Assembly (NCBI RefSeq): GCF_022045235.1 | Contig: NW_027266274.1 | Span: 15,128,001 to 15,192,000, forward strand | Length of the DNA stretch: 64,000 bases | Reading direction: 5' to 3' | From: Haliotis cracherodii | Taxonomy: Eukaryota | In this document: piece by piece, positions 1-64,000 of the stretch | Layout of the letters: every line of letters begins with the position of its first letter | Position numbering within the stretch: position 1 is the first letter of the stretch | Position numbers and translations under genes: made by a program | Notes under the pieces: model-generated | Told to the model about the DNA's origin: nothing | The model's database searches: none | What the model saw: the letters and a program-made list of their open reading frames with translations, nothing else

Positions 1-144
1 CCCTTCTGTAGACCAGACTGACTTATCTGTACCCCTTCTGTAGACCAGACTGACTTATCTGTACCCCTTCTGTAGACCAGACTGACTAATCTGTCCCCCT
101 TCTGTAGACCAGACTGACTTATCTGTACCCCTTCTGTAGACCAG
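1..144 (+). repeat. 32-bp tandem array of a splice-acceptor cassette (continues off the window)
   Basis: Unit ACCAGACTGACTTATCTGTACCCCTTCTGTAG; AG ends at 11, 43, 75, 107, 139. Confidence 0.95.
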
Positions 145-279
145 GTAGACAAACAGCAGGAGTCCCTCCAGCGCAGCCAGTCCCTGGAGGAGACCCAGAA
201 GCTGTACGAGGCAGGGAGCTACGACAAGGTGGTTGAGTTCCTGCTCCAGACCTTCTCTCAACCCCGCACAGCCAAGAAG
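140..279 (+). CDS. CABIN1: CABIN1 exon ([47 protein letters not shown])
   Basis: CTGTAG acceptor 138-139 (CAG at 143-144 is an alternative); AAG|GTGAGA donor. Confidence 0.88.
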
Positions 280-3200
280 GTGAGATATACCTCCACCTTC
301 TCTTAACCCCACACAGTCAAATGTTAGCTATATCACCACCTTCTCTCAACCCTGCACAACCAACAAGGTGAGCTATGTCTCTACCTTCTCTTAACCCTGC
401 ACAGCCAACAAGGTGAGCTATATCACCACCTTCTCTCAACCCTGCACAGCCAACAAGGTGAGCTATGTCTCTACATTCTCTTAACCCTGCACAGCCAACA
501 ATTTGAGCTATATCCCCACGTTCTCTCAACCCCACACAGCCAACAAGGTGAGCTATGTCGCCACCTTCTCTCAACCCCACACAGCCAACAAGGTAAGCTA
601 TGTCGCCACCTTCTCTCAACCCCACACAGCCAACAAGGTGAGCTACATCGCCACCTTCTCTCAACCCCACATAGCCAACAAGGTGAGCTACATCGCCACC
701 TTCTCAACCCCATTTTTTATAAAAAAAACAGTGGACTTGATGTCCCCTGCATTGAAAGTGCTGGAATATGCAGCACAAAACCTGTATCTCTGACCCTGAT
801 GTGGATGATGTCTGTTGCAGATATACCAGGGTAAAAGATTCCGGGGTAGAATAGGTCTTCAGCAACCCATGCTTGCCGTAAAAGGTGACTCTGCTTGTCG
901 TAAAAGGCGACTAACGGGATCGGGTGGTCAGGCTCACTGACTTGGTTGATGCATGTCATCGACCCCAATTGCGTGGTTCGATGCTCATGATATTAATCAC
1001 TGGATTGTCTGGTCCAGACTTGATTATTTACAGGCCGCCATCATATAGCTGGCATATTGCTGAGTTCGGCGTTAAACAACAAACAAACAAACAAACAAAT
1101 CTGTTGCAGATATCGGAGGCAGGCAGCTCTCTCCCCGAGCGGCACCGTCAGCTGATGCTGCTCCAGGACTCCCTCTTCAAGCTCAAAGACTACAAGGTTG
1201 GTGTTGAATGTCAAGGGTCTTAATACTCCTAATTCACATCCTAAAGCATGCTCACACCGGCTACATTAATTGCCCAGCCGATGGATCAGTGTGCACTGAA
1301 GTTTTCAGAAATGCCTCTTGCAGTAGGGTATTCAAGGGTACCTGGCATAGGAGATCTAGCTTAACCTAGCTTAACCTAGCTTAGACATCTTTTTGGGTCC
1401 CTTTATGTAGGTACCTTGTATTGGGCCCTGGAAATGAGAAGCTGTTTGTTGACCTCATATTGGGACCTTGTGTGATGTTGTGAAGCGGATCTCACACAGG
1501 GAGCTTGTGTAATTTTTTGAAGGGGACCTCACAAAGGGACCTTCTGTTATGTTCTAAAGGGGACCTCACACAGGGCCCTTGGGTTATGTTATAAAGGGAC
1601 CTCACACAGGGCCCTTGTGTCATGTTATAAAGGGGACCTCAAACAGGGCCCTCGTGTCATGTTATAAAGGGGACCTCACACAGGGCCCTTTGTCATGTTG
1701 TGAAGAGAACATCATATAGGGACCTTGTGTTATGTTGTAAAGGGACCTCACACAAGGACCTTGTGTCATTTTGTAAAGGGACCTCACACAGGGACATTTT
1801 GTATGGTGGCCCATATAGGAGGACCTTGTTTTATGTGGTAAAAGGGACCTCATATGGGGAATTAGTGGCAATTTGTATTGTGGACCTCATACAGAGACAT
1901 TATAAGGGACTTTTTATAGGGACCTTTTGTAGGGGACTTTATATAGGCACCATGTGTAGGGGACTTTAGATAGGGACCATGTGTAGGGGACTTTATATAG
2001 GGACCTTTTGTAGGGGACTTTATCGAGACACCATGTGTAGGGGACTTTATATAGGCACCATGTGTAGGGGACTTTATATAGGGACCTTTTGTAGGGGACT
2101 TTATATAGGCACCATGTGTAGGGGACTTTATATAGGGACCACATGTAGCGGACTTTATATAGGATCCGCGTGTAGGGGACTTTATGTAGACACCATGTGT
2201 AGGGGACTTTATATAGGGACCATGTGTAGGGGACTTTATATAGGGACCATGTGTAGGGGACTTTATATAGGGACCACGTGTAGGGGACTTTATATAGGGA
2301 CCATGTGTTGGGGACCTTATATAGGCACCATGTGTAGGGGACTTTATATAGGGACCGTGTGTAGGGGACTTTATATAGGGACCATGTGTAGGGGACTTTA
2401 TATAGGCACCATGTGTTGTGACTTTATATAGGCACCATGTGTTGTGACTTTATATAGGGACCATGTGTAGGGGACTTTATATAGGGACCGTGTGTAGGGG
2501 ACTTTATATAGGGACCATGTGTAGGGGACTTTATATAGGGACCTTTTGTAGGGGACTTTATATAGGCACCATGTGTATGGGACTTTATATAGGGACCATG
2601 TGTAGGGGACTTTATATAGACACCATGTGTAGGGGACTTTATATAGGGACCTTTTGTAGGGGACTTTATATAAGGACCATGTGTAGGGGACTTTATTTAG
2701 GGACCTTTTGTAGGGGACTTTATATAGGCACCATGTGTAGGGGACTTTATATAGGGACCTTTTGTAGGGGACTTTATATAGGACCATGTGTAGGGGACTT
2801 TATATAGGGACCTTTTGTAGGGGACTTTTTATAGGAACCTTTTGTAGGGGACTTTATATAGGCACCATGTGTGGGGGACTTTATATAGGGACCACATGTA
2901 GGGGACTTTATATAGACACCATGTGTAGGGGACTTTATATAGACACGACGTGTAGGGGACTTTATATAGGGACCATGTGTAGGGGACTTTATATAGGACC
3001 ACATGTAGGGGACTTTATACAGGGACCACGTGTAGGGGACTTTATATAGGGACCATGTGTAGGGGACTTTATACAGGGACCATGTGTAGGGGACTTTATA
3101 TAGGGACCACGTGTAGGGGACTTTATAGAGGGACCACGTGTAGGGGACTTTATATAGGGAACATGTGTAGGGGGCTTTATATAGGGACCACGTGCAGGGG

Positions 3201-6200: not shown

Positions 6201-9200
6201 GTGTGTAGGGGACTTTCTATAGGCACCGTGTGTAGGGGACTTTATACAGGGACCACGTGTAAGGGACTTTATATATGTAAATCCTTCCAGAAATGTCTGC
6301 TGTGGGGTGAGGTGTCCTTCAATGAAGCTCTCCAGTGTTACCGGCGGGCGTCGGGGCAGTCACGGGATGAATGGCTCACTACCATCAGACAGATCTTTGA
6401 CCACATCAACAAGTGAGAAGCCACATATTTTAATCATTTTCAGTTTTCAAGAATGGAAATATTTGCTGTCAGAAGACATTTTCTTGAAGTGTTTGTAATG
6501 TTCAACTAAATGTTTGTCAAACTTTGTGACATATCCTTGAATAGAATTAGGTGAAGGAATTGTCATTTTAGCTTGCCGCCATAACTCAGTAAGATCTGTT
6601 GTGAAAAAAATGAAATTCTGTGGAGAGTGGCATCAGTTGTCTGTCACTGACTCACTTGCTCCTCCTCTCAACACACAGAGTCCTAGACATGGATGAGAGC
6701 ATACTGAAGAGCCTCCCATCCAGCAACACCGTCCGCCACACTCAGAACCTCATCCGCATGATCGAGCTGACGATGGACGCTTCGGACACTTCCCCCGAGG
6801 TGCCAAACACGGTCGTGTTGTCATGGATACTGTTGTCCAGACTCATCAAAAGGTATGAATTCACGAATATGAACTCATTAATATCTGAATAGTTTCTTGC
6901 AAACCTAGGCTTAAAAAATGTGCAGCGTATGTAAACATTCAAACATCTTACATCGACAAACTGTGGCCAAGGTTTTACCAGATGCCAAGTATCTCATCCT
7001 GGACTCGTACAATTTGATATTGGGCACAAGTAGTTTACATTGTAAGTCCTGTGGAATTCGATAAGGTCTGTTTAAAGCATAAACAATTATCAATATAGAT
7101 TGTGTGGTACAGGTAAAAGTAAGTTCTGTTCTCATAAGAAATACACTCAAGCCTCAGGGCATCAGTGGTTCATTTGCTTCAATCTATCATCTCTACATGG
7201 AGCTTGCTATGGGTGGCCCAATGTTCATGTCTGGACTCCAAACTGTGATGACTGTAATGTATGGACCTAAGTAAAACCCTGTATGGCAATAAGGACCCTA
7301 ATGACATTGAGACTTCTTTAAGTTCAGTCCATCAAGTTTACTGATGCAGGCTTCCGGCAAGATACGAACAACGTGTTCACCAGACACATGTGCCTGGAGA
7401 GCAGGCAACAACAGTTGCTCTTTTATGTGCGCTTCTTATTTCAAGTATTTTACAGTCTCTTCGTGCATTTATTATACCATTGACATTTATAGTTGTGTGT
7501 ATAATTATACATGTACAGTTTGTGTGTATAATAATACATGTACAGTTTGGTATATAATTATACATGTACAGTTTCTGTATAATTATACATGTACAGTTTC
7601 TGGATAATTATACATGTACAGTTTGTATATACAATTACACATGACGTTTGTGTGTATAATTATACATGTACAGTTTGTATATAAAATTATACATGTCGAT
7701 AAAGTGTATAATTATAATGTACAGTTTATATGTATGATTATACATGTACAGTTTGTACATCCTGGTTGCAGCGACACTATCATGTCAAGTGTCCAGCATC
7801 CCCACTGCTTCCTGCATAGTCAGCCCTGTATCCAAGGCCCCTTTTTTACTACAGCATTGATTTTTGTGCCAGTCAGTCATTGCTGAGATGTAGCTAGAGC
7901 TTGGACCAACCTGTCTGTATGTGTGTGTGTCTGCAGTGAGGAGGCCAAGTTGAGGTCCATGCTGGCGCCGGGGGAGGAGGGGACCAACATGGACGGCGCC
8001 ATCAGCAGCTCCCTCATGCTGCTCAACGTCGCACACGAGTATCTTGGGAGGTAAGTCAACAGTTTAAGGAATAGACAGATACTGATTTATATTTGGCTAT
8101 GGACCTGTGCCACTTTCAAGTGAATAATGTTATAAGCCACCCTTTTTTATTACATAATTGGGGCGGTGGGGTAGCCTACTGGTTAAAGCGTTCGCTCATC
8201 ATGCCGAAGACCCGGGTTCGATTCCCGACATGGGTACAATGTGTGAAGCCCATTTCTGGTGTCCCCCACAGTGATATTGCTGGAATATTGCTAAAAGCGG
8301 CATAAAACCTCATTCACTCACTCACTATTACATAATTATGCTCGTAGATTTGCTTTTTGTCTTGTCAATATTTATCAGAATAACTCTGCTGTTTAAATTC
8401 AGTGAGTCATTGTAACCATTAATATACTGGAAATTATTATTGTTTACAGTTTGGACAATTGATATGCAGATAAATGTGTTTGGTCCAAAGATATAGTTTG
8501 CTTGATTGTTTCAAATGTGGTTGATCCTTAACTACAGACAAGGTCTTACTTCAGTCTTTCCTGACACATTAACCTCACAAAAAGTCGTGTAACTGAAATA
8601 TTGTTCAAAGCAACACCCGTGAAGACCCAGGGAAGTATAGGTCTTCAGCAACCCATGCTTGCCGTAAAAGGCGACTAAACTTGTCGTGACTAACGAGATC
8701 GGGTGGTCAGGCTCTGTGACTTGGTTGATGCATGTCATCGTATTGTTCATGGATCAATGCTCATGATGCCAATCACTGGTTTGTCTGGTCCCGACTCGAC
8801 TGTTTACAGACCACTGTCATGTAGCCGGAATATTTCTGAGTGTGGCGTTAAACAACAAACAAACAGATTAAAGCAACATTAAACTGAACTCACTCACTTG
8901 TAAATTCTCTTGAAGAAGAAGCCAGTCAAAAATAAAAAATAAATAATTTTTTTAAAAAATTTTGAGGGTTAGCATAAGATGACACTTCTGTGCTACTTCA
9001 GACACTCGTGGTGCACCAAGTCGGATGGTGCTCTGCTGCTGTACTTCCTCAATGAGCTGGAGCAGGAGATGAAGAAGCCCCACTTCATCAGGGAGGGGCT
9101 GGACATGGCCCTGGAGCAGTGCATCTTCTGTCTGTACGGACACCCACACAAGCGGGGCAAGGCCAAGCACCTGCAGGACCATAACGCTCCACCGGTCAGT

Positions 9201-12200: not shown

Positions 12201-15200
12201 AATTACATTTGACCCATGAAGTTAGGTACGCCACCACATCCTGGATAACATCAAATGACCTGGTCAGTCTCGGGTCATCATAGCTGTAAAAGGTCATCAC
12301 CCCATTGTACATATGTTAGGGACAATAAATATGTGTTGTCCTTGCACAAGACTTGCTAAAGACAATTTTGGTTCCGAACTGTGATATTTTCAGTTCATCA
12401 ACACTTTTGGCTAATAATCTCTGGTTATTATGTTTGCACATTTAGATATATAAAAGGTGGGTCTTTAACATGTTTAACACAGTGATGTTGACAAAAGCAG
12501 TGGTTATGTTTGTTGACCCATTTCAGTTGCTGAAGTAAAAGTTTGTTTGCTTGTTGTTTATGCCCCCCTCAGCAATATTCCAGATATATGACTGCAGTCT
12601 GTAAATAACCAGTCAGACAATCTAGATCAGACTATCTCGTGATTGGCATCATGAGCAGCGATCTAAACTGTTATATATGATAACATGCATTTACCAGGTC
12701 ACCTAAGCTAAGCACCCGATCCAATTTGTTGCCTCTTACGACAAGTCATGGGTTGCTGAAGACCATTTTTGACCTGGATCTTCACAGGGGATGAAATAAA
12801 ATTAATAGCATATGATGAGGTGAACTACAGTACCATGGCACTGTGTGGTAGCATCTTTTCATGCCTAGACAATGATGCTGTGATGGATTTTCTGTTCAGA
12901 TACAAGTTGTACAAATATTAAACTTTTATACAGCCAAACATCACGAGACAGTTCAGAACTACATTGAAGGGAATACCAACACCGCCCCATCCTCACAGAC
13001 AGACAGGTGAGTCAGTCAGGCTCTCATTATCCTCAGTTGGGTGAGACTTGCCAAATTCAGTGATAAAATCATTTTACTTGCAATTTTGTAATTTCCATTT
13101 GTAAACTATTGCCCTTTTTCATTTTACATTTTCAAAAATTTTATTGAAAAGAAATCAAAGCCTAAGTGAGATGTGTTTGACACTGCTTTCAACGTTTTTT
13201 CATATCTTTGCATGGCAGAAATGGAAATTCCATTCTGTCGCGATTTAACATTCTGGTGAAACTGAAAATGATCATGAAAATGTTGTGACAGCTTACCATA
13301 AAGATACTCTGTTTTGTCAGCCGAAGGGTAATGTGTTTCCTGTTTTCCAGCTCCATCTTGAAGGGTCTGTATTACCTCCTGGGCGACTACTACTTCAAGA
13401 ATAAGGAAACACCGTAAGTAGACACTCAACATCAGTTCTCAACATGACAACCGTTTTGTTACAACTACATGCAGAAAGCTAATTAAGTGATTGTTAACTT
13501 AACCCCCTGGCTTTTCGCTTCTACTCAACCTTTCGAGGGGAATTTACAGTACGACATGTCGCCATCTTGATTCAGGAAGGCCTTTATGTTCTACATGTAT
13601 GACATGGCGCCACCTGTTTCAAGCAGGCCATCAAGTTCTCCAAGTGTGACATGTCACCATCTTGTTTCAGGAAGACGGTAAAGCTCAACATGTATGACAT
13701 GTCACCATCTTGTTTCAGGAAGACGGTAAAGCTCTTCATGTATGACATGTCACTATCTTGTTTCAGGAAGGCTATCAAGTTCTAAATGTATGACATGTCA
13801 CTATCTTGTTTCAGGAAGGCTATCAAGTTCTACATGTATGACATGTCACCATCTTGTTTCAGGAAGACGGTAAAGCTCTTCATGTATGACATGTCACCAT
13901 CTTGTTTCAGGAAGGCTATCAAAGTTCTACATGTATGACATGTCACCATCTTGTTTCAGGAAGGCTATCAAGTTCTACATGTATGACATGTCACTATCTT
14001 GTTTCAGGAAGGCTATCAAGTTCTACATGTATGGCATGTCGCCATCTTGTTTCAGGAAGGCTATCAAGTTCTACATGTATGACATGTCGCCATCTTGTTT
14101 CAGGAAGGCTATCAAGTTCTACATGTATGACATCTCACTATCTTGTTTCAGGAAGGCTATCAAGTTCTACATGTATGACATGTCACTATCTTGTTTCAGG
14201 AAGGCTATCAAGTTCTACATGTATGGCATGTCACTATCTTGTTTTAGGAAGGCTATCAAGTTCTACAAGTATGACATGTCACTATCTTGTTTCAGGAAGG
14301 CCATCAAGTTCTACAAGTATGACATGTCACCATCTTGTTTCAGGAAGACCATCAAGTTCTACAAGTATGACATGTCACCATCTTGTTTCAGGAAGACCAT
14401 CAAGTTCTACAAGTATGACATGTCACCATCTTGTTTCAGGAAGGCCATCAAGCTCTCCAAGTATGACATGTCACCATCTTGTTTCAGAAGGCCATCAAGC
14501 TCTCCAAGTATGACATGTCACCATCTTGTTTCAGAAGGCCATCAAGCTCTCCAAGTATGACATGTCACCATCTTGTTTCAGGAAGGCTATCAAGTTCTAC
14601 ATGTATGATCTCGGCAGCAACCCCACCAGACTAGACTCATGGGCAGGGTTGGCACTGGCGCGGATGAGCCAGCTGGAACAGAAGCTCAGCTCGGTAAGAG
14701 AAGATTTCTTGTCATAAATCCTTGAATGATAACTATTTTCACTGTAAACTTTAACCAGGATCAAGCCTTGTTTTGAATTTGGGTCACTTTACTTTTGGAG
14801 TGTCTCGCTGCATTCAATATCGATCGTGGTGATACAACTGGAATAGTATTCAAAGCGGCATTAAACCCAACTCACTCACTTACTCTCAATATCGATCACT
14901 GGATTGTTTAGTCCAGACCCGATTATCTAAAGGCTGCTGTAATATAGCTGAAATATTGCTGAGTGTGGCATTAAACTACAATTACAATTTTGGAGTCCTA
15001 AAATTGAAACACAAACTCATTATTGATGTGGTCATTACACTCTTCGTCAGAGGAATTAATTCTTTCAAAAATTCTTCACCGAGAATGTCAATTTTTACCC
15101 ACAAACAATGGAAATCCATTAAAAAACAAGGTTGAAAGGCAGGGTTTTACATTGACCTACAAAACCATGGGTCCAGAGGACCATGAGGACCCCCAGTTAC

Positions 15201-18200
15201 TAATTTCAAGGGTCCTTCCAGTAAATACGAGGTTCCTGTAAAGTAATGAAATGGTCTAGTGTACCGTACTGTAAGATTTAATAATTACTTTAATTACAGG
15301 AACTTTAAATTTTTGTCAAGGTTTTGGTACACCTGTACTCCACCTGTACTTGATGGCCCATGTAATCTAGCAACTCATTTCAGATGGAGCTGCGCATGGA
15401 CATCTCTATACACAAGAAGTCTATAGCAGCTCTGCGGTGTTTCCGCCGCGCGGTGGAGATTGACGAGACACAGAGGAACCTGTGGATAGAGTACGGCTCC
15501 CTGGCCTACCAGCTCCACTCACATGCTTCCAGGCAACTCAAGATGGTAGGTGATCCAGGCCCTCTTAGGGGATTTCTCTAAGATTTGTTTGTTTGTTGCT
15601 GCTACACTCAAGCAATGTGATATCCTGCATGTTGTCAAGTCTGGATCAGACAATCCAGTGATTGGCCACAATGTAATGTCCCATGCTGTCTGGTTCCGAT
15701 GTCACAAGAGTGACTTGTTCCCCCTGTAGGATGGTGGGGAATTCTGTCTTCTATCTCTGTATCCCCACAGAGAGACTGGTTCACCTGTAGGATGGCGGGG
15801 AATATGGATGACTCTGTCTTATATCTCTGTATCCCCACAGAGAGACTGGTTCACCTGTAGGATGGCGGGGAATATGGATGACTCTGACTTATATCTCTGT
15901 ATCCCCACAGAGAGACTGGTTCACCTGTAGGATGGCGGGGAATATGGATGACTCTGACTTATATCTCTGTATCCCCACAGAGAGACTGGTTCACCTGTAG
16001 GATGGCGGGGAATATGGATGACTCTGACTTATATCTCTGTATCCCCACAGAGAGACTGGTTCCCCCTCTAGGATGGCGGGGAATATGGATGACTCTGACT
16101 TATATCTCTGTATCCCCACAGAGAGACTGGTTCCCCCTGTACGAGGAGCTGCTGGGGATTGTGACGGACACAAAGCAGGAGATGCTGCAGATCGCCCAGA
16201 ACTGTTATTGGAAGGCCAGTGAGTGTGAAGCCGACGGCAGCGAGGAGGAGTGGCTGCACCACTACATGATAGGCAAGGTGAAGGAGAAGAAGAGGTGTCA
16301 CCCTAAAGAATACCTGGAACACTACAGACAGGTGAGTTGTACTTGGAGCACTACAACTATACTTGGAACCAAGTTAACTTGTTATGACATTTCAGTCACT
16401 GCAGATGATAATTTCCAGTGTTTTGTTTACTGTTCATACAGTGAATGTATTGGGTAGGTGTTACACATGTGTATCAGTGTATTCAGGGTATTAAAACATT
16501 CACTGGCACCTCTCCCTATTCCAGGCAGCAATCTACCTCCACGAAGATGAGGCCTTCTATCCCAAGAAGATCACATACGCCAACAGCCCACCCAAACTGG
16601 CTCTTGAAGCGCTCGAGGTAACAGATTCTCAACTCCCACATACTCCATGCTTGTATTAGTAGCCAACTGTGTTTACAGTGTGTGACCTGGCTGATAAGGT
16701 GTTATAGTTTCACAACAACATTCACAGATACTTGTGCTATCAATCATTTGTTGGCCACATCCATTGCACAGACATGTTGCCTCTTGAACTAGAGAAGTCA
16801 CGTTTCACATATAAATACTTCTACAAGTGGAGCAGACCCATGAAGATCTGGGGTAGTACAGGTCTTCAGCAACGCATGCTTGCTGTAAAAGGCGACTATG
16901 CTTGTCATTAGAGGCGACATGCGGAATCAGGTTTTCAGACTCGCTGACTTGGTTGATGCATGTCATCGTTTCCCAGTTGCGCAGATTGATGCTCATGATA
17001 TCAAAAACTGGATTATTAGTCCAAAGTTGATTTGTTTTTGTTAGGGTCTAATCATTCTTGTTTGATACTGTTTGCAGATGACAGCAATTAAAAAGTGTTG
17101 CTGCTGAAGTATGATATCAATATATGTCCATATGTTATATTTGCTCTCAGATATCTCTAATTACTGAAACAATAATAAGGGGTGTATGTTCCATTGATTA
17201 TCAACAGTAGATTTCAATATATTACATCCTAGCCACTCGTGAAGATCTGGGTTAGAATAGGACTTCAGCAACCCTTACTTGCCGTAGGAAGAGATTATGC
17301 TTGTCATAAGTCGCGATCGGGGTTGTCAGGCTCGCTGACTTGGTTGATGCATGGCATCATGTCCCAATTGCTTGGATCAGTGCTCATGATATCAATAACT
17401 GGATTGTCTGGTCCAGACTCGATTATTTACAGACCGCTGTCATTTAGCTGGAGTGCAGCTTTAACATTAAAATGACAAACTAACATATACTAGTGGAGCG
17501 TAGATGATGTTTTAAATAATGTCTTGAGGATAAAAGGTCGGCAGAGGACAGTTGATGTTAAGATGGTGTTTTCAGGTGTTCTACCTGTAGAACATTGCTG
17601 ATGTTAAAATGGATGTTTTCAGTTCTACCTACAGAGCATAAATTGTGTTATGATGATGTTACAGGATTCTACATAAAGAACATTGATGATGTTAAAATGC
17701 ATGTTTTCAGTTCTACCTACAGAGCATAAATTATGTTATGATGATGTTACAGTATTCTACCTAAAGAACATTGATGATGTTAAAATGGTTGTTTTCAGTT
17801 CTACCTACAGAGTATACATGATTTCAAGTGTTGTTCCTATAAAACAGATGGTGTTTTAGGTGTTCTGCCTATAAAGGGTAGATGATGTTTTAGCCTGATG
17901 CTGCTTATGTCATAGTCATAGAGCATAGACATGTTTACAGTTGTTCTACCTATAGAGCATAAGTAATATCAAGATGATGTTTCAGGTGTTCTACCTATAG
18001 AGCATACATAATGTTAAGATGATGTTTCAGATGTTCTACCTAAAGAGCATACGTAATGTCAAGATGATGTTTCAGGTGTTCTACCTATAGAGCATACGTA
18101 ATGTCAAGATGATGTTTCAGGTGTTCTACCTAAAGAGCATACATAATGTTAAGATGATGTTTCAGGTGTTTTACCTTAAGAGCATACATAATGTTAAGAT

Positions 18201-21200
18201 GATGTTTCAGGTGTTCTACCTATAGAGCATTTGTAATGTCAAGATGATGTTTCAGGTGTTCTACCTTAAGAGCATATATAATGTTAAGATGATGTTTCAG
18301 GAGTTCTACCTTAAGAGCATACGTAATGTCAAGATGATGTTTCAGGTGTTCTACCTATAGAGCATACGTAATGTCAAGATGATGTTTCAGGTGTTCTACC
18401 TGTGGAGCATACGTAATGTCAAGATGATGTTTCAGGTGTTCTACCTGTGGAGCATACGTAATGTTGAGATGATGTTTCAGGTGTTCTGCCTATGGAGCAT
18501 ACGTAATGTCAAGATGATGTTTCAGGTGTTCTACCTATAGAGCATACGTAATGTCAAGATGATGTTTCAGGTGTTCTGCCTATGGAGCATACGTAATGTC
18601 AAGATGATGTTTCAGGTGTTCTACCGCCTGCACGTGGCTATCCTGAAGCAGCTGCTGAAGAAGGATGGGATGGTGGACTACGAGCTGTTCCAGCACTACC
18701 TCACCGAGGCTGCCGAGAGTCCATTTGCAAAGGGCAAGGAGAAGAGGCATGAAAGGTGAGCTTTGTGCCAGTCTCACCGATTTGTCAGGTTCTGAAGATT
18801 GGAATTTTTGCAATGTTCCAGTCCCAGATTTCCCTGATTATGTTTCGGGTTTGTCAGCACCATACCCGTGCTTGTGACTTTAAACAAAGTGGTAAACGCC
18901 TGCATCACCTGGGGTTTCCCCCCAGATGTGATTATAGCTGAAATGTTGCTCACTTGGGTATATCATTCATTCCATCAGCGTTAATAACTCTGTGTAATGA
19001 TGTACATGTTTGATGCAGACGAGAGTCCCACTCTAACTCCATGGACGAAAGCTCCTCATCCAACCTCACCCCCCCAGCCTACAGCCAGCTGAAGGCCCGC
19101 CCTGTGTATCACATGACCCCCCAGGACCACACCTATTCCAAGCAGAAGAGCTCAGTGGACGGGTCGGACACGTCGTGTGATGTGGTCAAGGAAGTTCAGG
19201 GCAACGACAGCTCCCACTCCAAACCTGCAGCCGTGGCTGCTAAGGAGGGGCAGAAGTCGGAGGATAAATCTGGAAAATCGGAAAAAGAAGCTGAAAGCAA
19301 ACCTGAAGCCATGGAGGTGTCGAAAGATGGAGATTTGCTAAAGATCCAGAGACACGTGAGTACAGAATTTGTGCCCAAAGATGGGGATGTTACAGCAGGA
19401 GGTGCTGAACAGAAGTGTGTGGGTAAGGAATTGAAATCAATTCCTGAAGAAAAACGACAGAAAAGTGATTCACAGGACGTCAAAGCTGATAGTGCTAAGT
19501 CTGAAAGTGCTAAAGTGATGCCAGATGGGGATAAAGTGATGCCTGTTGATGATAAAGTGATGCCTGTTGATGATAAAGTGATATCTGGTGATGATAAAGT
19601 GATATCTGGTGATGATAAAGTGACATCTGGTGATGATAAAGTGACATCTGGTGATGATAAAGTGACAGCTGAGAAAGGCAAAGATGCTTCTGACCCAAGT
19701 GAAACAAAACAGAAAGACAAGGATGAGTTGAATGATAGTGTGTTGGTGTTAGATCCCGCCACTGGCCTGATGGTGCCTATGCTAGAGGATGACATGGAGG
19801 TTGATGACGTGATAGAATCTGTAGTCAGTGACAAGAGTAAAGCCAAGACTGTGGAGGATCCCGTGAAGGACCCCAAACCTGCTGCAAGTACTCCAGTCTT
19901 AGGTAAAGCCCCTCCTGTCCATGACATAGATGTTATTGAGATTAGTGATGATGAATCTTCAAATCCTGCTAAATCTACAGTATCCTTGTCCCTTAAGAAG
20001 CCATCTGACTCTTGTAAAGATTCTGAAACTAAAGTTGGACCTGAAGCCAAAAAAGAGCTTTTTGGAAAGGTTAAGGAGAATAGCACTAGTTCTAAAGACA
20101 CTCCGAAACGTGAAACCAAAAAGCCTGAGAAGTCTAAACCAGATGATGAATCACTTCATGATGAATCATCACGGTTGTCTGATAACTCGGATGAGTCGGA
20201 CTCATATCAGCAGGACTCCCTGGACACAGAGATCCTCCACACGGAGCTGATTGACAAGTGTGTAGACGCACTTCATCTGTGTGTTCAGCGCTTCCCCACT
20301 CACTACAAGTCTCTGTACAGACTGGCTCACGTATACATGACATCGCCATACCACAAGGTAAGACAGAAAACTTATGACATCATTATAACAGAACACCTGC
20401 ATGCAGATACGAGTAAGAATTGGTGTTCACGGTTGTGCTTGTCAAATAAAAACAGAATTGAGTGGTCATTCTTGCTGACTTGGTTGATGCATGTATTTGT
20501 ATCACAATGACGTAGATTGATGTTCATGATGTCAATCACTGGGTTATCTGGTCCACTTGATTATTTACAGACCATTGTTACATAGCTGTCATTGCTGAGT
20601 GCAGCGTTAAACAACAAACAGACAATATAACAGAACATTTATGTTTGCTTGTCGCTAATTAGTTATTAGTTTCTATAGTTGTACTCGAAAAGAATTCTGT
20701 CTGCAAAGAGTTTCATAACAATATATTTGGTTCTGAATTTCATTTGCCATGGTATCTGTTAGATAGTGTTTGCAAAGGTTTGAAAATATTTTGATTTAAT
20801 TGGTTTAATCTTGAAAAAGCAAAAGATTGATGCCTTTGATCTTTTCAAATTACCGTAAATACAGTGAAATCTTTAAAACTCACACACATTATATCGTTTC
20901 TTGACAGCACCCTTATTGATGACATTGTCAAAGATCAGCACTTTTGGACAACAGACCTTGATTTTATGAGGTTTTAAGTACTAAATGGAATGTGTTGAAC
21001 CATGTCTCTTTCTGCCACATTGAGACCATAGACAATGAGTTCTTCAGAGTTCTTGAGTCAGACGGTGATTTTAACATTTCGAGATTACCATGATTGCAAG
21101 TGTTGTGATGTTCTTCAGTAGGCAGTGTCAGGTACTGATTGTAGCAACTGTATGTTACAAAATATTAAGTTGTTGATAGGGCTGTGTATTGACCTAGATT

Positions 21201-24200
21201 TTGTATGCCAATATATTGCCATACTTTAACCTGTATTGCGATGCATATTGCAATATATTGCCAATTTACATTTTCATGAGTTAATCAGAGTTATACACTG
21301 TATTAATGTCAGATACAATCAAGCTCCTTCCAAGCGTGTGACACCTTCATTATGCTCTCAGTATAGAGAGCTCCGCAGACAGGCTATTGCTGTGAGGAGA
21401 TTGACATGTGTACACATTAATTGATAAAAAGATCGTCAGAGGTTAGTTGTATGAGAAAGATACTATTTTCCAGACAAGAGAGTATGAAATTTTGAAATGT
21501 GAAAATCTTTATCTTTATCTTTGATGTCCTATTTAGTCATCTTGTCAGCAGGGGGGATAGGGTTTTGAGGATGTTCATTCATCCTCTTTGCTATGTAATT
21601 GTAAGGGACTCCAAGAGGTAAGGTACTCACATTCTTCTTGAAACATGAAATATGTATCCATCATTGTTCCAGAACCTGGAGTATGCCAGGGACTTGTTGC
21701 TAGGCAACAACAACTGGCAGAACCTGTCTCACATGCCCGGGCCAGGTCTGTTTGCAGAGAGACGGACAGCTAACTTCTTCCAGGTACAGTCTTTCAGTAA
21801 TACCATGGTGTATCAACAAGTCAGAGGACAGCCCAAACTGAATAACGTTGCAGATTTTTCCTGTTGAAACACGTCATGGTACTACTAGATTAAAAAATCT
21901 TTATCAGCATGCATGTGTCATTCAAACCCAAGACCGGGTTGATTGTGGAAGCATTGCTTCACACAGCTGGGCACCCATGTAATATAGTGATGGATGTTTT
22001 GAAAGAAGAGGCCATTAAGTAACAACACAGAAGCAATAACATTATTTCAGGAAAGATTTCTGTCCATAACACCTGCATCCATTTTTTCCTCCATGCATGA
22101 CTTTTTGATACTTCTGGCCCTAACCCTAACCCTGCATACATGATTTTTTTATACTTCTAGACCTAACCCAAACCATCACCCTCACCCTAACCTAACCCTG
22201 CATGCAAGATTTTTTTATACTTCTGGCCCTAACCCTAACCCTGTATGCATGATTTTTTATACTTCTAGCCCTAACCCTAACCCTAACCCTGCATACAAGA
22301 TTTTTTTATACTTCTGGCCCTAACCCTTACCCAGCATACATGATTTTTTTTATTCTTCTAGACCTAACCCAAACCATCACCCTCACCCTAACCTAACCCT
22401 GCATACAAGATTTTTTTATACTTCTAGCCCTAACCCTAACCTTGTACGCATGATTTGTTTATACTTCTGGCCCTAACCCTAACCCTGATTTTTTATTCTT
22501 CTGGCCCTAACCCTAACCCCGCATACATGATTTTTTATACTTCTGGCCCTAACCCTTACCCAGCATACATGATTTTTTTTATACTTCTAGACCTAACCCA
22601 AACCATCACCCTCACCCTAACCTAACCCTGCATACAAGATTTTTTTATACTTCTAGCCCTAACCCTAACCTTGTACGCATGATTTATTTATACTTCTGGC
22701 CCTAACCCTAACCCTGATTTTTTATACTTCTAGCCCTAACCCTAACCCTGTATACATGATTTTTTTTTTACTTCTGGCTCTAACCCTAACCTTGTACGCA
22801 TGATTTGTTTATACTTCTGGCCCTAACCCTAACCCTGATTTTTTATACTTCTAGCCCTAACCCTAACCCTAACCCTGTATACATGATTTTTTATACTTCT
22901 GGCCCTAACCCTCACCCTAACCCTGTTTGCATGATTTTTTTATACTTCTAGCCCTAACCCTAACCCTAACCCTCACCCTACACACATGAACTTTATATAC
23001 TTCTAGCCCTAGCCCTAACCCAAACCTTCACCCTAACCCTAACCTAACCATACATACATGAACTTTTTATACTTCTAGCCCTAACCCTAACCCTAACCCT
23101 CACCCTACACACATGAACTTTTTATCCTTCTAGCCCTAGCCCTAACCCAAACCTTCACCCTAACCCTAACCTAACCCTACATACATGAACTTTTTATACT
23201 TCTAGACCTAACCCAAACCCTCGCCCTAATCCTCACCCTACATACTTGAACTTTTTATACTTCTAGTCCTAACCCTAACCCTACATACATGATTTGTTTA
23301 TGCTTCTGTGGGTTATGAGTTTTTAATTATTTCAAGGCAGGAGTTACTCCTGTAAGTTTTACCGTTATTACCTCCTGTTGCTTTATGACTGCCACTGATT
23401 AACACTGTATCTTGCTCTAGGGTATATGGAAGATCCCCATTGAAGAGATAGATAGATCAGGGAGCTTTGCATCTCACATCCACCGTAGTGTGCGTCTGTT
23501 GCTGGACATCCTCACGGAACAAAAGGACATCATGATGCTGTACCACATCCACATCCAGCTGAACCGATCTCTGGACACTGGCAAGTGAGTGGACAATGTT
23601 CTTTGTGTATTTTTTTTTTTTTTGCGGTAGAAATTAACTTAAGCTCTTGACAACCAGTATTCAAGTTTTCAATGGGATAAGGGAAAATGAATTTTCACAA
23701 ACTCTTGCTCACATTCAACTAGTTTTATTAAATAAGCGAGAAGAATTTCAGATTTTCAGTAGTTATGTCTTATAGGTATTATATGTTGACCAATGTGTGT
23801 ATCTGGTCAGCACTAAGAACTCCCATGAAAATCTGGGTAGGATTGGCCTTCAGCAAACCATGTTTATCATAAGAGGCGATTAACGGGATCAGTTTGTCAT
23901 ACTCGCTGACTTGGTTGATGCTTTAGTCATTGCCATGCATGTTTTAGGAAATATCTCCGAGATCAGGAGAGGAACTGCTTTGCCAAGTCGTCCTTCAAGG
24001 CAATCCAAGAGGCCGTCACAGAGGAACTGAAGCATTGGGACCGGAAGAAGCCCCGAGACAAGCAGCTGGACTACCTGATGACCGTGTACAGAGTGTGGCA
24101 CCACTCATCCCACAAGCTCAATGCTTTTGTGGATGGCTGTACAGACCTGTTTGTCAAGGTTTACAAACTTGTACAAAAGGATTATGTGAGTGTAGCAGGA

Positions 24201-27200
24201 TTGTGCCCTAGGTTGGTGTAGTGAGTTGACTGATAAGGTTCCAGTCTGCCATTGGAGGTGTGTGTTGGTCATTCTCGGGACTGGCACTGTGTATGCATCT
24301 TTGATCACTACATATGCTTGATTTGGGTAATCAAATAAAATGCAAGCTCAGCAGTATGCACATGTATTAAGCACTCTATTTTATGGTTACATATGAAAAT
24401 GATAAAATGAATATGTGGTTGCTCAAATTGTACATCTGAAGTCTTAGTAAGAGGAAACATGCAACATCTCTACTTGCAGATTGACAGCAGCCAGCCCATC
24501 CTGGAACAAGCAACCAAATTCTGTCAGCAAAGATCAGCCATGAACAGACCGTCATCTCAGGTTAGTTAACAGTTGATTAAGGGGATACAGTTGCTCTAGA
24601 TTCCATGGCACATTGGGGAGCTTTGATCAGTGGGTCAAACAGATTACTCACATTTGCTAGTGATGTCTCTACTTTAGTGCTAATGGGTATGTCCCAGTGA
24701 AAGAATTATCTTGAATGAAGTCTCGATTTAAAAATATTGTATATTTCAATTTGGAACTTTATAGTAATGTCACAAAGATCTGAGACAAATCCCACAACTG
24801 TGCAGAGTTGTTTCCCCTAGATGTGCCAGGATCAACAGATCTTTAGTTTGTCAGCACCATACCCTGCACATGTGTTTGCCAAGAGGGGTACAATTCACGA
24901 CCTGGGCTGATACAATGTAATATTGATGAAATACTGTTCAAAGTTGTGATAAACCCAACACACTCACTCTTTCAGTCATCGGATGCGAACAAGTCGGCAA
25001 ACCTGAGCACAGCAGGATTCCTGTCACCTCCCACAAATAAGGCCCCTTCTCAGACGTCTGACCACAGCTCACCCGGGGATCCAGCCTTCCTCTCCCCAAA
25101 ACATACAGGACCTTTCTCACCTTCACCTAAGAAGAACATTCAGTCTCCATTCTCATCACCCACTGGTCCATCTAAGCTGCCCATCCAATCAGATTTAAGC
25201 AAAATTCAAACCAGCCAATCAGATGGCAGCAAGGTATCTACAAGCCAATCAGATGCCAGTTCGACTGGAACCACTAGCCAATCAGAAGGAGATGATGCAC
25301 TGGTGTTTCCGTCGCCAGGGAAACTGACTTCAGCGGTACAGGTACACCTTCCGCATGGTCACTATTAGTGATGGTGTATATATCTCTGTGTGGAGGCATG
25401 GTGCATATTTCTGTACTGATTTTGTCCACAGCTTAGCAAGCAAGTTGTTGCACTTTCTGATGACAAATAAATATTTTTGGAAGGCGCTTTTTGTGCAGAG
25501 CATTGTTGTTTTTGTTTATTTTCATCTCTGTTCATTCGTTACGCATTTGAATGCTGACTGACTACCATGTACATGCAGTAGATTTATTTGACAATTCGTA
25601 GCTCGTTATTTAAAAATCTTTTACATGTGCTGCTAACTGTAATGTATTTAACATGGCTGCTTTATGAGGCATGTGCATTGAGTTAGTGTGTCACTCTACA
25701 CAACAGATGACAATGATGCTGAGCATTCCTGTTATGTCCCAAGGATGGCTTACCTGCAAAATTGTTTGTAGTTATTACGTTTTCTCTCATACACAATATC
25801 AAAATTAGGTTAGCTCATAAGTGAGGTAGCCAAAAGTCTGCCACCTTTTCTCTGCCACAAAACTTTTCAGATTGCCTTAGTTTCAATGTCATAATATGAA
25901 GTAAACATGATATGTGCTTCCATCTACAAACAAGAGGAAAGAAACACAGGGCCCTTGTGGTATGCCAAAGGTCTTGGTTCACATGGAAATAATGTTTGAA
26001 GCCCATTCCTGGTGTCGCTCAGTGAGATTTTGGTGATATATTGCTAAAAACCTCGTAAAACCATACTCATTCACCCACTCTTTTTCATCAAGCTCCTGTG
26101 TACACATGACTTGGTAATGTGTGTTCCTATGCTTTTTGACTGTGCTTACTATTGATTGTTAGCAAGTATGCAACAGGGATGTATTTGATAAACAATATCT
26201 TAAAAAAAAATAAATGTCAGGTTCATTCATGCACAAAATACAAGACGATCTTGTGATAGTTTCATGTATGCAGTTGAATTAGTATAGTAGTAGTTATAGG
26301 AGGCGAATAGATTGGGTGATCAGGCTCGATCACTTGCTTGATTGTGTGTCCTCATACCCCAATTTCAATCACAGGATGTCTCGTAAAGACTTGATTATTT
26401 GCACACCGCAATCTTATAGCTGGAATATTGCTGATTACGGAGTATATTAATTTTGTGTGTGCGTGCAGGTAACAGTAGACATGGTAGAAGGAATAAACAG
26501 ATATCGACTCTTACTCATTAACTACAATATGTATTTGTTCTGGTTGTGTCTGAGATTAGACAAGGTCATCTGAAGTAAAATGCTCAGTGTAGTAGTTGGA
26601 ACATTTGATCCCAGATGCTTGATATGTGAGGTTCCATCTTAACGTTCTTTATCAACTACATCCCTGTTCTGTGTATCTGTAGTTCACTTGTTACTTAGCA
26701 CCAAACCAATGATCTCAAAACATATTTGCAAAACAAAATTGAAATTGAAGTCCAGTTTTCAGAATATTATTTTTCATATTGAAAAAGATGTGAATGAATA
26801 CTGAGGAATAAATGAAAAACTCTCGAAGTTACAGGAAATCTATTGATTTGGTGTCTCTTGTTGAAGAAGTCGCAAATGTATGGAAGAAAATCATGATTAA
26901 ATCCTTCCAAACGGTATGCTGTGTTGTCTCCTCTCTCTATGTCATCTGGCAGAACTGTGTTGTGTAAGATGAAGAAGAAATGAGTCGCTGGGATGACAGG
27001 ATTTACCGAGGCCACTGCACAAAATGTCCATGGTGCTACACTTTTTATGCTTATAATTGGAGTTATGTAAGCTTTTGTATTTTGGATGTGAGCTTGTTTT
27101 AGAATGTATTATCGCACCATTGCATCTCAAAACATAGATTGAATTGACTGGATGAAATTACTACTTTATGTATAGTTGCTCAGTGTGATTCCCCTTCCTT

Positions 27201-60450: not shown

Positions 60451-62019
60451 TAAGTGGAGTCTATTTCTGGTTTGGGCAAATGTTTCAAAGTGATCAATCA
60501 TTTGATTATTAGTACCATGTTAATCTATTATTGACCATGCATTCCATGGTTTTGCAAACACAGCTGGTTAATGAAATAGGTCAAAATTTGGAGGGATCAG
60601 TATAACTTTACATTAAAAAGTCACACTAGCAATACCTCAGCCAGACAGTGACAAGAACAAGTTAAGGAATGAAAAAGAATGATATCAATATTTCAAAGTA
60701 ATATGTAAGGATCATGTTTAACATATGAAGCATGGCAACACTACTTAACAAATGTCAACAGGAACCAAAACTTGATCATGTTACAAGGTGCCCGAGAGAC
60801 TTGCAGTAAGATCTTGACGTCCTTTATCTGTTAGTCTTTGTGGACAAAACTAATTTACAGAATGATCAGTGATCGAAGTAATCATTGATTATGATAGAAG
60901 TTGCCGAGGGGAATGCGGATTAATATCAGTCAACAGCAGCCTACGTTTTTTCGAATATTGCTGAGACCGGCATAAAAAACGAAGTTACATTGATTACACA
61001 TGTGTCTTGCGGGAATTTATTTTCCTGTATAAGGGGAAGTAATCGTGTAGCGGATCTTATGAAGCGTTCGTACAATAACCATGACTGGAATTTCACAATC
61101 CATATATACGATACCAAAAACGCAGGGCATTGAGGTGAGTTGAGGTGAAATTGGGTTTAACGTCGCGTGTGTGTGTTTGTGTGGCTGCTTGTACGAGTCT
61201 GGACTAATGCCGATTTATAGTGCTAGCCCACTGAGATACCATGCCGCAGTTTAACATGAATACGCCAATCAGACACAGTATACTGACTCCGAGCCGACCA
61301 GTCCTTGTTTTAGCCCCTTAATGCCGAGCGCCAGACAGGGTAACAACAAGTACCATCTTTTAACGTCTTTTGGTATGACGCGACCGGGGATCGAACCCGG
61401 ACCTTCCGCTCTCCGGGCGGACGCTCTACATCTAGACCACGGAGGCGGTCCGCAGGGGATGGAAGGTATCATCAAGACATATCTTCGGATCTATATGGTA
61501 TTTGGTAAATGAATATGATATGATCATATATGCTGTAGAGTAAGCGATCAAATCTAATGGTTTTTAATGGTTGGTGTGATGATATGGTAATCTCAGTTAC
61601 AAATTGAACACTACTAATACTGTAAATTGTAAATGATGTGCACACATTAAAAATCTATCAATCAGTTCAATTTCTTTTTAAAAGCTAATCATTAAATGAA
61701 ACGGAACATTATTAAACAGATCCAGAATAACAGAATAACAGGATAACAGAATAACAGGACCTGGTGTGACCAGCCAATGGATAGAATCGAACCCACTCCA
61801 CCAATGTCTAGGTGAAGTTAACGTCAAGCTGTGCTTGCAAAAGGAACACTGTGCCTGAGTCCAGTGTCCTCAAACACAGGCATCCCTTCCTCAAGCGACA
61901 CAGGGGCGCAACCCACGGCAAACGGTCTGTCGAATTTAGTTGCCTTTTATGACAAGCAATAGGGTGGTGATGGCACATTCTACCCCGGGTAACCACATGG
62001 GCATGCTTCCGATCAGTCG

Positions 62020-63049: not shown

Positions 63050-64000
63050 CCGCCAGGCCTAAACGAATCAGGTTAATGTGGGACTTCCTCCTCTTATATT
63101 CATTATTTGAATGAATATCATAACATCATATTTTGAAGAAACCAACTTTATTTAACATTAAAACTACTTATATGGATGGACCTAATGTTTCTAGACAGAT
63201 TCGTTTTTCTTATTTTTCAGGCAACTTCACGGCAGGTCATGTAGCTGATAAGGTGAGTGAGAATGATTTTACGCCGCTTTTAGCAATATTCCAGCAATAT
63301 CACGGCGGGGGACACCAGAAATGGGCTTCACACATTGTACCCATGTCGGGAATCGAACCCGGGTCTTCGGCGTGACGAGCGAACGCTTTAACCACTAGGC
63401 TACCCGACCGCCCTGTAGCTGATAAGGACTCTGCGTAAGTAGTATAATCAACTTTCGTATTGTCATTATTGGATACCATGAATATAATGAATCACATATT
63501 GTCACTTCCCTCTACTGTCAACATTCATTTTATGTTGTATCAATGGATGTTTCAGGGTAAAATAAACTCTCCAAACATATATAAGACAGTAGGACAAATG
63601 TGTCATGAAACACGTATGTATCAGACACCTGAAAGTGTACTTGGATTGTTTCGAGACTGCAGCGGGAACATCTGCTGTATGTGACTTGGCACGCGCGCGT
63701 CGCTATATAAGTGCAATAATCTTGAATACGACGTTAAACCCCATTTCCCCTCACTTCATGTCAACGATTGTTTATTTATTCGAATTTACTTTCATGTAAG
63801 CATTATTGATATTACTTATATTTATATTATTAGTAATATAGCACACTGACATTATGTGTTTTAGGCCGCTAGGGGCCTACATCCAATGTCTCCCTGACGC
63901 AGGAGAGAAAGATACATGCAAGACTGGAACCAAAGCCTCTGCTCTCGTAGACAAGCCCAAGGGGAGACTTGCAATTCTTACATGTAGTAAGTATCAGGCT
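63050..64000 (+). pseudogene. Disrupted paralogue of the 36064-39737 gene
   Basis: Matches 36300-38330 including introns; SINE A inserted in exon 2 (TSD TGTAGCTGATAAGG); exon 2 shortened; about 1.07-kb deletion removes the end of exon 3 and exon 4; exon 5 counterpart at 63865-63986. Confidence 0.85.

Follow-up and report, generated by a model that had tools for sequence, protein, structure and literature searches.

The closest described relative of the locus reported here is the canine merle allele, in which a SINE (SINEC_Cf) lies at the boundary of PMEL intron 10 and exon 11, and a 15-bp target-site duplication (TSD) is said to hold the original acceptor. As these reports describe it, the merle SINE is antisense to the gene, its oligo(dT) tract activates an in-frame acceptor inside the SINE, and a phenotype results; in cryptic merle, where the tail is short, the exon-adjacent acceptor still works (PMC7349775, PMC6091007). 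Four Alu insertions described in NF1 are likewise non-LTR events that hit a 3' splice site, at its AG or its pyrimidine tract, and carry a TSD. All four were found via disease and all four led to exon skipping (PMC3219598). Introners, according to their description, may take their acceptor AG from the TSD; they form a new intron within an exon and are mostly DNA transposons (PMC11282704). Intronic copies of real splice sites, with the exon-adjacent copy in use, are also reported for the amphioxus "mirages", where splicing is reported to be undisturbed (PMC3087553), and for the human F7 IVS7 minisatellite, where the copied sites are donors (PMC1557585).

Here we describe an abalone insertion whose type has a precedent in the merle allele. 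It lies in a 64,000-nt stretch of Haliotis cracherodii DNA, which we call the window. As in merle, a SINE-like element sits at an intron–exon boundary and the acceptor lies within the TSD. Unlike in merle, the element is in sense orientation and has an AG-free (AAAC)n tail, there is no antisense T tract to activate a cryptic acceptor, the tested alternatives from the upstream AG shift the reading frame, and no phenotype is known. Whereas disease brought the NF1 insertions to light, the abalone insertion seems long-standing and tolerated; whereas introners create an intron, here an existing intron has grown by 289 nt; and whereas the mirages and the F7 minisatellite are tandem arrays, here the TSD has made a single decoy. 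Within the limited literature searched, we found neither a description of this locus nor a tolerated case in a mollusc. Our preferred reading, to which we assign a probability of about 0.8, is that a SINE-like element inserted by chance, that splicing goes to the exon-adjacent copy of the acceptor, and that the insertion is likely near neutral.

Insertion and target-site duplication

By homology, the host gene is the CABIN1 orthologue. A sequence search with exon A led to a bivalve protein, and a search with that protein led to CABIN1 proteins (766 matches, the best 120 of which were considered), with which the gene is collinear. P0007, a Haliotis rufescens protein labelled cabin-1-like by its source, aligns to the genome in 41 collinear tblastn segments, which cover residues 2-2705, start 23 kb before the window and end at position 25365. 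The window gene is nearly identical to it but for scattered residue differences, which point to a close relative or another haplotype. PDB sequence searches (exons A and B; P0001) left the gene unnamed, and a Pfam search returned a weak TPR match alone. The exons needed here are:

140..279, forward strand: exon A of CABIN1, starting in phase 1 and ending in phase 0, with its donor at 280
1110..1196, forward strand: exon B, 87 nt, phase 0/0, 29 residues, with its donor at 1197
6291..6412, forward strand: exon C

Exon B is identical to P0007 residues 1365-1393 and is followed by a 5.1-kb intron. Of the gene's 39 internal exons, 37 are 46-238 nt long; a size of 87 nt fits this range, while one of 376 nt does not. 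The insertion occupies the end of the intron between exons A and B:

811..824, forward strand: upstream TSD copy, with AG at 819-820; likely decoy acceptor; substitution at 814 in run X5
825..1099, forward strand: SINE-like retroposon, 275 nt, sense to the gene, without tRNA head or B box
1074..1099, forward strand: (AAAC)n tail, within a 43-nt AG-free stretch ahead of the downstream AG, with a weak branch-like YTNA (A at 1075)
1100..1113, forward strand: downstream TSD copy, with AG at 1108-1109; the acceptor that yields the conserved protein

The two 14-nt segments are an exact direct repeat with a spacing of 289 nt, and the 14-mer consists of intron positions -10 to -1 plus exon B positions +1 to +4. 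These positions bear out the first-pass annotation, which had proposed a 14-bp TSD covering the acceptor and the first four exon nucleotides. Exact flanking repeats of 10-16 nt are found in 20 of the 29 closest other copies of the element, so a 14-nt repeat is nothing unusual in this family, and a coincidental repeat is not a serious alternative. Judged from the sequence, the repeat is confirmed as a TSD spanning the splice acceptor of exon B. The same annotation also described an insertion into an exon start that was rescued by its own TSD. The TSD stands, while the rescue is overstated: the event can equally be seen as one in which the element landed in the intron, 10 nt short of the exon, and the duplication left a decoy behind.

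Staggered nicking of the target is an established step of non-LTR insertion. In the mechanism that we propose, target-primed reverse transcription would, by chance, have started from staggered nicks on either side of the intron–exon border, one 10 nt into the intron and the other 4 nt into the exon, and this would have produced the duplication. When the genome was searched with 1100-1350, neither a second copy nor an empty haplotig was found, and the short repeat at 1217-1308 alone gave matches. That repeat is a short dispersed one in the intron after exon B, with 25 other matches at 76-83%. A metagenome scan gave two matches of 17-18 residues, which we took as chance.

The element belongs to a large family, with 6206 first-look candidates in the 1.18-Gb genome. 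Among the 40 copies scored, identity is 93-96%, save for the window copy itself and one at 86%. Over 835-1077 (243 positions), the window copy shares 96.7% identity with the majority sequence of the 29 most similar other copies, all of which have AAAC/CAAC-type tails, and the family measures about 252 nt from its head to the start of its tail. The first 10 nt of the window copy (825-834) are unlike the family head, which corrects a detail of the earlier description of the element. This altered head creates a new CAG (827-829) and a new GT (831).

In being short, dispersed and high-copy, with variable TSDs and a simple-repeat 3' tail, the element behaves like a SINE, yet by its features it is not a classical Pol III SINE: it has no tRNA, 5S or 7SL head with Pol III A and B boxes. 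An Rfam search of 800-1120 gave zero matches at E values up to 10, and a search for a B box that allowed one mismatch found none in the element. The Haliotis LP-SINEs Hdi_LP and Hmi_LP are described as 255 bp long, without a tRNA head, with variable TSDs and a tandem-repeat tail, and with a head of ~70 bp that is homologous to the 5' UTR of Nimb/RTE LINEs (PMC4758252). Compared by description only, they resemble our element in abalone host, length, TSDs, tandem-repeat tail and lack of a tRNA head; they differ in the published AATATA hexamer before the tail, to which the family majority has no exact match (PMC4758252).

Carriers, relatives and RNA

Seven of the 21 sequencing runs listed were compared (X1, X5, X6, X7, X8, X15 and X19). 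In X19, which was sampled from raw reads at the percent level, the flanks had no coverage, and there was no RNA of organism A among the 21 runs. X1 and X5 come from organism A and from two studies, although X1 is possibly related to the source of the assembly. Each gave two contigs at the site: one starts at 676, crosses the upstream TSD and ends at 860-861 within the element, and the downstream one begins 25 nt before 1100. The X5 haplotype differs from the window at 748, 761, 762 and 814. Since the contigs cross the 5' junction unbroken, in X5 on a differing haplotype, we infer that the insertion is likely long-standing and likely homozygous in both animals. In X6, the upstream contig stops at 823 and the downstream contig begins 14 nt before 1100, a pattern that fits at least one filled allele.

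The suggestion that relatives be checked for an empty site is indirectly borne out. In organism B (X7) and organism C (X8), the exon B contig reaches 88 and 152 nt, respectively, upstream of the downstream TSD without a break, whereas organism A contigs break 14-25 nt upstream of it. In empty-site coordinates, the organism B contig ends at 724, in an A run, and the organism C contig at 659, in the minisatellite, both near the starts of the organism A upstream contigs (673-676). Assembly of a single contig through both tail and body of such a high-copy repeat is improbable, so we read these extents as indirect evidence that organisms B and C have an empty site. Across 715-861 and 1100-1360, haplotypes within organism A vary as much as organisms B and C vary from the window: in 251 nt there are 6 substitutions within organism A vs 4 between the window and organisms B and C. 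X6 has three variants in common with organisms B and C.

X15 (organism D) is RNA by the tool's guess. A 491-nt contig from this run covers 1108-1196, with the end of exon A before it and the start of exon C after it. It joins the end of exon A directly to 1110 and, after 1196, passes into exon C; the loose end of the contig consists of the last 30 nt of exon A. This shows inclusion of exon B at the right junction in a relative, which is not a known carrier.

Choice between the two acceptors

The following features bear on which acceptor is used:

790..800, forward strand: a pair of branch-like YTRAY motifs, with their A at 793 and 799, that stayed with the upstream acceptor; putative function
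821..884, forward strand: possible 64-nt pseudo-exon, from AG 819-820 to a SINE-internal GT at 885; predicted frame shift
938..940, forward strand: first stop codon on read-through from 821

The 8 nt preceding the AG are identical at the two acceptors. With a small and crude matrix built leave-one-out from the 39 other acceptors of the gene (two introns set by eye), the core acceptor scores 9.8 bits at both sites, above 36 of the 39 leave-one-out scores, and over -24 to +2 the downstream site scores 8.4 vs 7.6 for the upstream site. Farther upstream the sites diverge. There are 5 pyrimidines in -24 to -11 at the upstream site and 3 at the downstream site, which has no T in this interval, the lowest count among 40 acceptors (the other 39 have 1-7). 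YTRAY motifs number two at the upstream acceptor and zero at the downstream acceptor; 19 of the gene's 40 acceptors have one and 21 have none. The downstream acceptor has a weaker YTNA with its A at 1075, and the next AG comes only at 1108. The first-pass annotation held that the downstream AG lacks a pyrimidine tract, which proved wrong: the 8-nt core tract was copied along with the AG, and the upstream site never had a longer one. What was left behind at the upstream site is the two branch-like motifs.

Use of the acceptor ending at 1109 in carriers is likely, and we infer it from three features: a real exon and donor follow it, its core tract is kept, and it is the first AG after a candidate branch A. 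In the proposed mechanism, the downstream AG would win by exon definition, as it alone has a real exon with a real donor 87 nt on; the same core tract would still serve it; it would be the first AG past the possible branch A at 1075; and the (AAAC)n tail would act as an AG-free spacer. Any leak via 821 would yield a frame-shifted message that is likely cleared by nonsense-mediated decay. Several observations run against this reading: the two YTRAY motifs lie upstream, the downstream T count is the lowest in the gene, and a donor in the SINE outscores the real one at 1197. In human reporter libraries, equal tandem acceptors 2-59 nt apart are reported to be used without an order preference (PMC6783452), and exon skipping in 4/4 of the NF1 insertions also speaks against it (PMC3219598).

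We translated seven routes: the normal one, skipping of exon B, and five others via 821 or SINE-internal AGs. The normal route and skipping are the only open ones. Read-through from 821 would give a 376-nt exon in frame +1; this, the 64-nt (821-884) and 10-nt (821-830) exons, and the acceptors at 1018 and 1034 all shift the frame, with stops 102-378 nt ahead of the end of exon C. The AG at 1063-1064 is in frame and open, yet scores under all 39 true acceptors. These results agree with the earlier claims that AG 819-820 now leads into the SINE, 289 nt off and out of frame, and meets a stop (at 938-940 on read-through). Every upstream-AG route tested breaks the frame.

One could propose that the element acts in the style of an introner, i.e., that the upstream acceptor opens a micro-exon, the 5' end of the element provides a donor, and the AG of the downstream TSD copy serves as the acceptor of a new intron. 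The altered head does yield a GT at 831 with a score of 6.1, and an acceptor drawn from the TSD has been described for introners (PMC11282704). However, the micro-exon is 10 nt long, shifts the frame and leads to a stop in exon C, and the two best donors give frame-shifting exons of 10 and 64 nt, so removal as a new intron does not leave the frame intact. Of eight donors scored in the element, the sole in-frame one (877, giving a 57-nt exon) scores 2.9, near the bottom, and P0007, from a related species, has no extra residues at the junction. By frame, this proposal is close to refuted.

The likelier leak is the 64-nt pseudo-exon, a feature absent from the first-pass annotation. The SINE donor at 885 scores 7.7 vs 6.2 for the real donor at 1197, which makes 821-884 the most plausible one; its product would stop in exon C, 102 nt before the exon's end. 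If partially exonised, with acceptor 821 and its branch motifs paired to donor 885, it would act as a poison exon that cuts the dose of CABIN1, and tail length may shift its share, as in merle. The scores of both sites lie among those of true sites in the gene, an exon of 64 nt would not stand out in size here, and the X6 contig start 14 nt before the downstream TSD could be explained by an allelic difference in tail length. On the other side, no read shows the pseudo-exon, the insertion persists on several haplotypes, well-scoring decoy acceptors are frequent and apparently ignored in this gene, and the change at 814 in one haplotype is what would be expected of an upstream copy free to drift (one site only). 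We therefore consider partial exonisation unlikely. We give slightly less credence still to a bolder version, in which the TSD made two live acceptors and slippage of the (AAAC)n tail tunes inclusion of the 821-884 poison exon, so that the insertion would be a sense-strand, merle-like dial on a histone-chaperone gene and, more broadly, AG-free SINE tails may be kept upstream of abalone acceptors.

Alternatively, the tail may weaken the downstream acceptor enough that exon B is often skipped in carriers. Being 87 nt long in phase 0/0, the exon can be lost with the frame kept, giving a protein minus 29 conserved residues; the upstream T content is the lowest of the gene's acceptors; and skipping was the usual result of the NF1 Alu insertions at acceptors (PMC3219598). 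Against this, the core of exon B is present without loss in 119 of the 120 other homologues aligned, birds, mammals and amphioxus among them, so frequent skipping should be costly; carriers appear to be homozygous; and the core acceptor score is high. The homologues, together with the organism D contig, also answer the concern that the exon is normally skipped. Frequent skipping in carriers thus seems very improbable.

Under the preferred reading, the spliceosome would pass over one decoy and use the exon-adjacent acceptor, and elsewhere in this gene it appears to do so many times over. In five other introns the 14-mer around the acceptor recurs exactly farther upstream, in 5, 11, 12, 14 and 16 copies arranged in tandem arrays, and in each of the five the match to P0007 requires the exon-adjacent copy. 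The layout is that of the amphioxus mirages (PMC3087553) and resembles, for donors, that of F7 IVS7 (PMC1557585). The arrays, together with one that contains a donor, are:

1-144 of the window: acceptor-containing tandem array, 11 copies
13545-14608 of the window: acceptor-containing tandem array, 16 copies
15743-16141 of the window: acceptor-containing tandem array, 5 copies
17931-18625 of the window: acceptor-containing tandem array, 12 copies
L031, acceptor 467 nt before the window: acceptor-containing tandem array, 14 copies
250..712, forward strand: minisatellite with a 45-nt unit that includes the donor of exon A; separate from the SINE event

Exon-proximal acceptor choice is thus, as far as can be read from the arrays and the protein match, routine in this gene, and the single TSD decoy is its mildest case there. 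At 22088-23307 of the window, a CABIN1 intron holds a complex array with an abundance of telomere-like CCCTAA units. On the minus strand, 61376-61446 and 63338-63409 match tRNA weakly, right at the threshold of Rfam; these are possibly SINE heads.

Chance, targeting and meaning

The insertion could be one case of a general rule, with the SINE family aimed at acceptors or kept near them. Within the gene, 3 of 16 sense tails adjoin an acceptor vs 0.48 expected (P 0.011, post hoc and with the finding included), which fits pure chance less well, and 3 of the gene's 40 acceptors have a sense retroposon tail whose distance to the exon start, counted from the end motif of the element, is at most 50 nt. 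Once the finding itself is omitted, the count is 2 of 15. Moreover, the other two cases belong to a different, tRNA-like family and show no clear TSD across the acceptor (best matches 9/14 and 8/14).

Genome-wide counts of exact patterns do not favour targeting either. In the 16 nt after the tail pattern, an acceptor-like hexamer occurs 165 times, compared with 111 times for a control hexamer; the background in 211 kb is 370 vs 292 for the control. SINE tails ahead of acceptor-like motifs therefore show no significant genome-wide enrichment (1.17-fold, z 1.1). When 30 of the 165 loci were sampled, an exact repeat of at least 9 nt across the AG was found in 8, one of which is probably not a TSD, and most of the sampled loci look non-coding by GC and open frames. 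A targeting rule is accordingly a highly doubtful explanation.

Other retroposons in the gene have their own features. The two further acceptors, one at 24939-24975 of the window and one in L031 (8992 nt before the window), come immediately after the (CACT)n tail of an older SINE family with a tRNA-like head, and that tail supplies most of their pyrimidines (TSD match at best 8/14 and 9/14). About 9690-9045 nt before the window, L031 holds a DNA-transposon-like element of ~650 nt with 29-nt inverted ends, which splits the copy of this older SINE there, and about 8900-8600 nt before the window it holds a full (CACT)n-tailed SINE with an 11-12-nt TSD, ~14 nt past a donor of the CABIN1 gene. Among retroposon 3' ends in CABIN1 introns, from 23 kb upstream to 24976 of the window, 16 of 19 are sense (P 0.004), a bias that would be expected if antisense T-rich tails were selected against.

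If chance insertion with exon-adjacent splicing is the true account, the consequences for the gene are small: this would be one more tolerated insertion. Its importance would be larger if carriers include the 64-nt pseudo-exon in a manner that depends on tail length. In either case, a duplicated acceptor can mislead annotation and spliced alignment, and the insertion is likely a presence/absence marker between close species. The locus also offers a natural test of acceptor choice in a mollusc, as two identical 14-nt sites stand in contrasting settings: one keeps the old branch region but lacks an exon, whereas the other adjoins the exon and has a SINE tail ahead of it.
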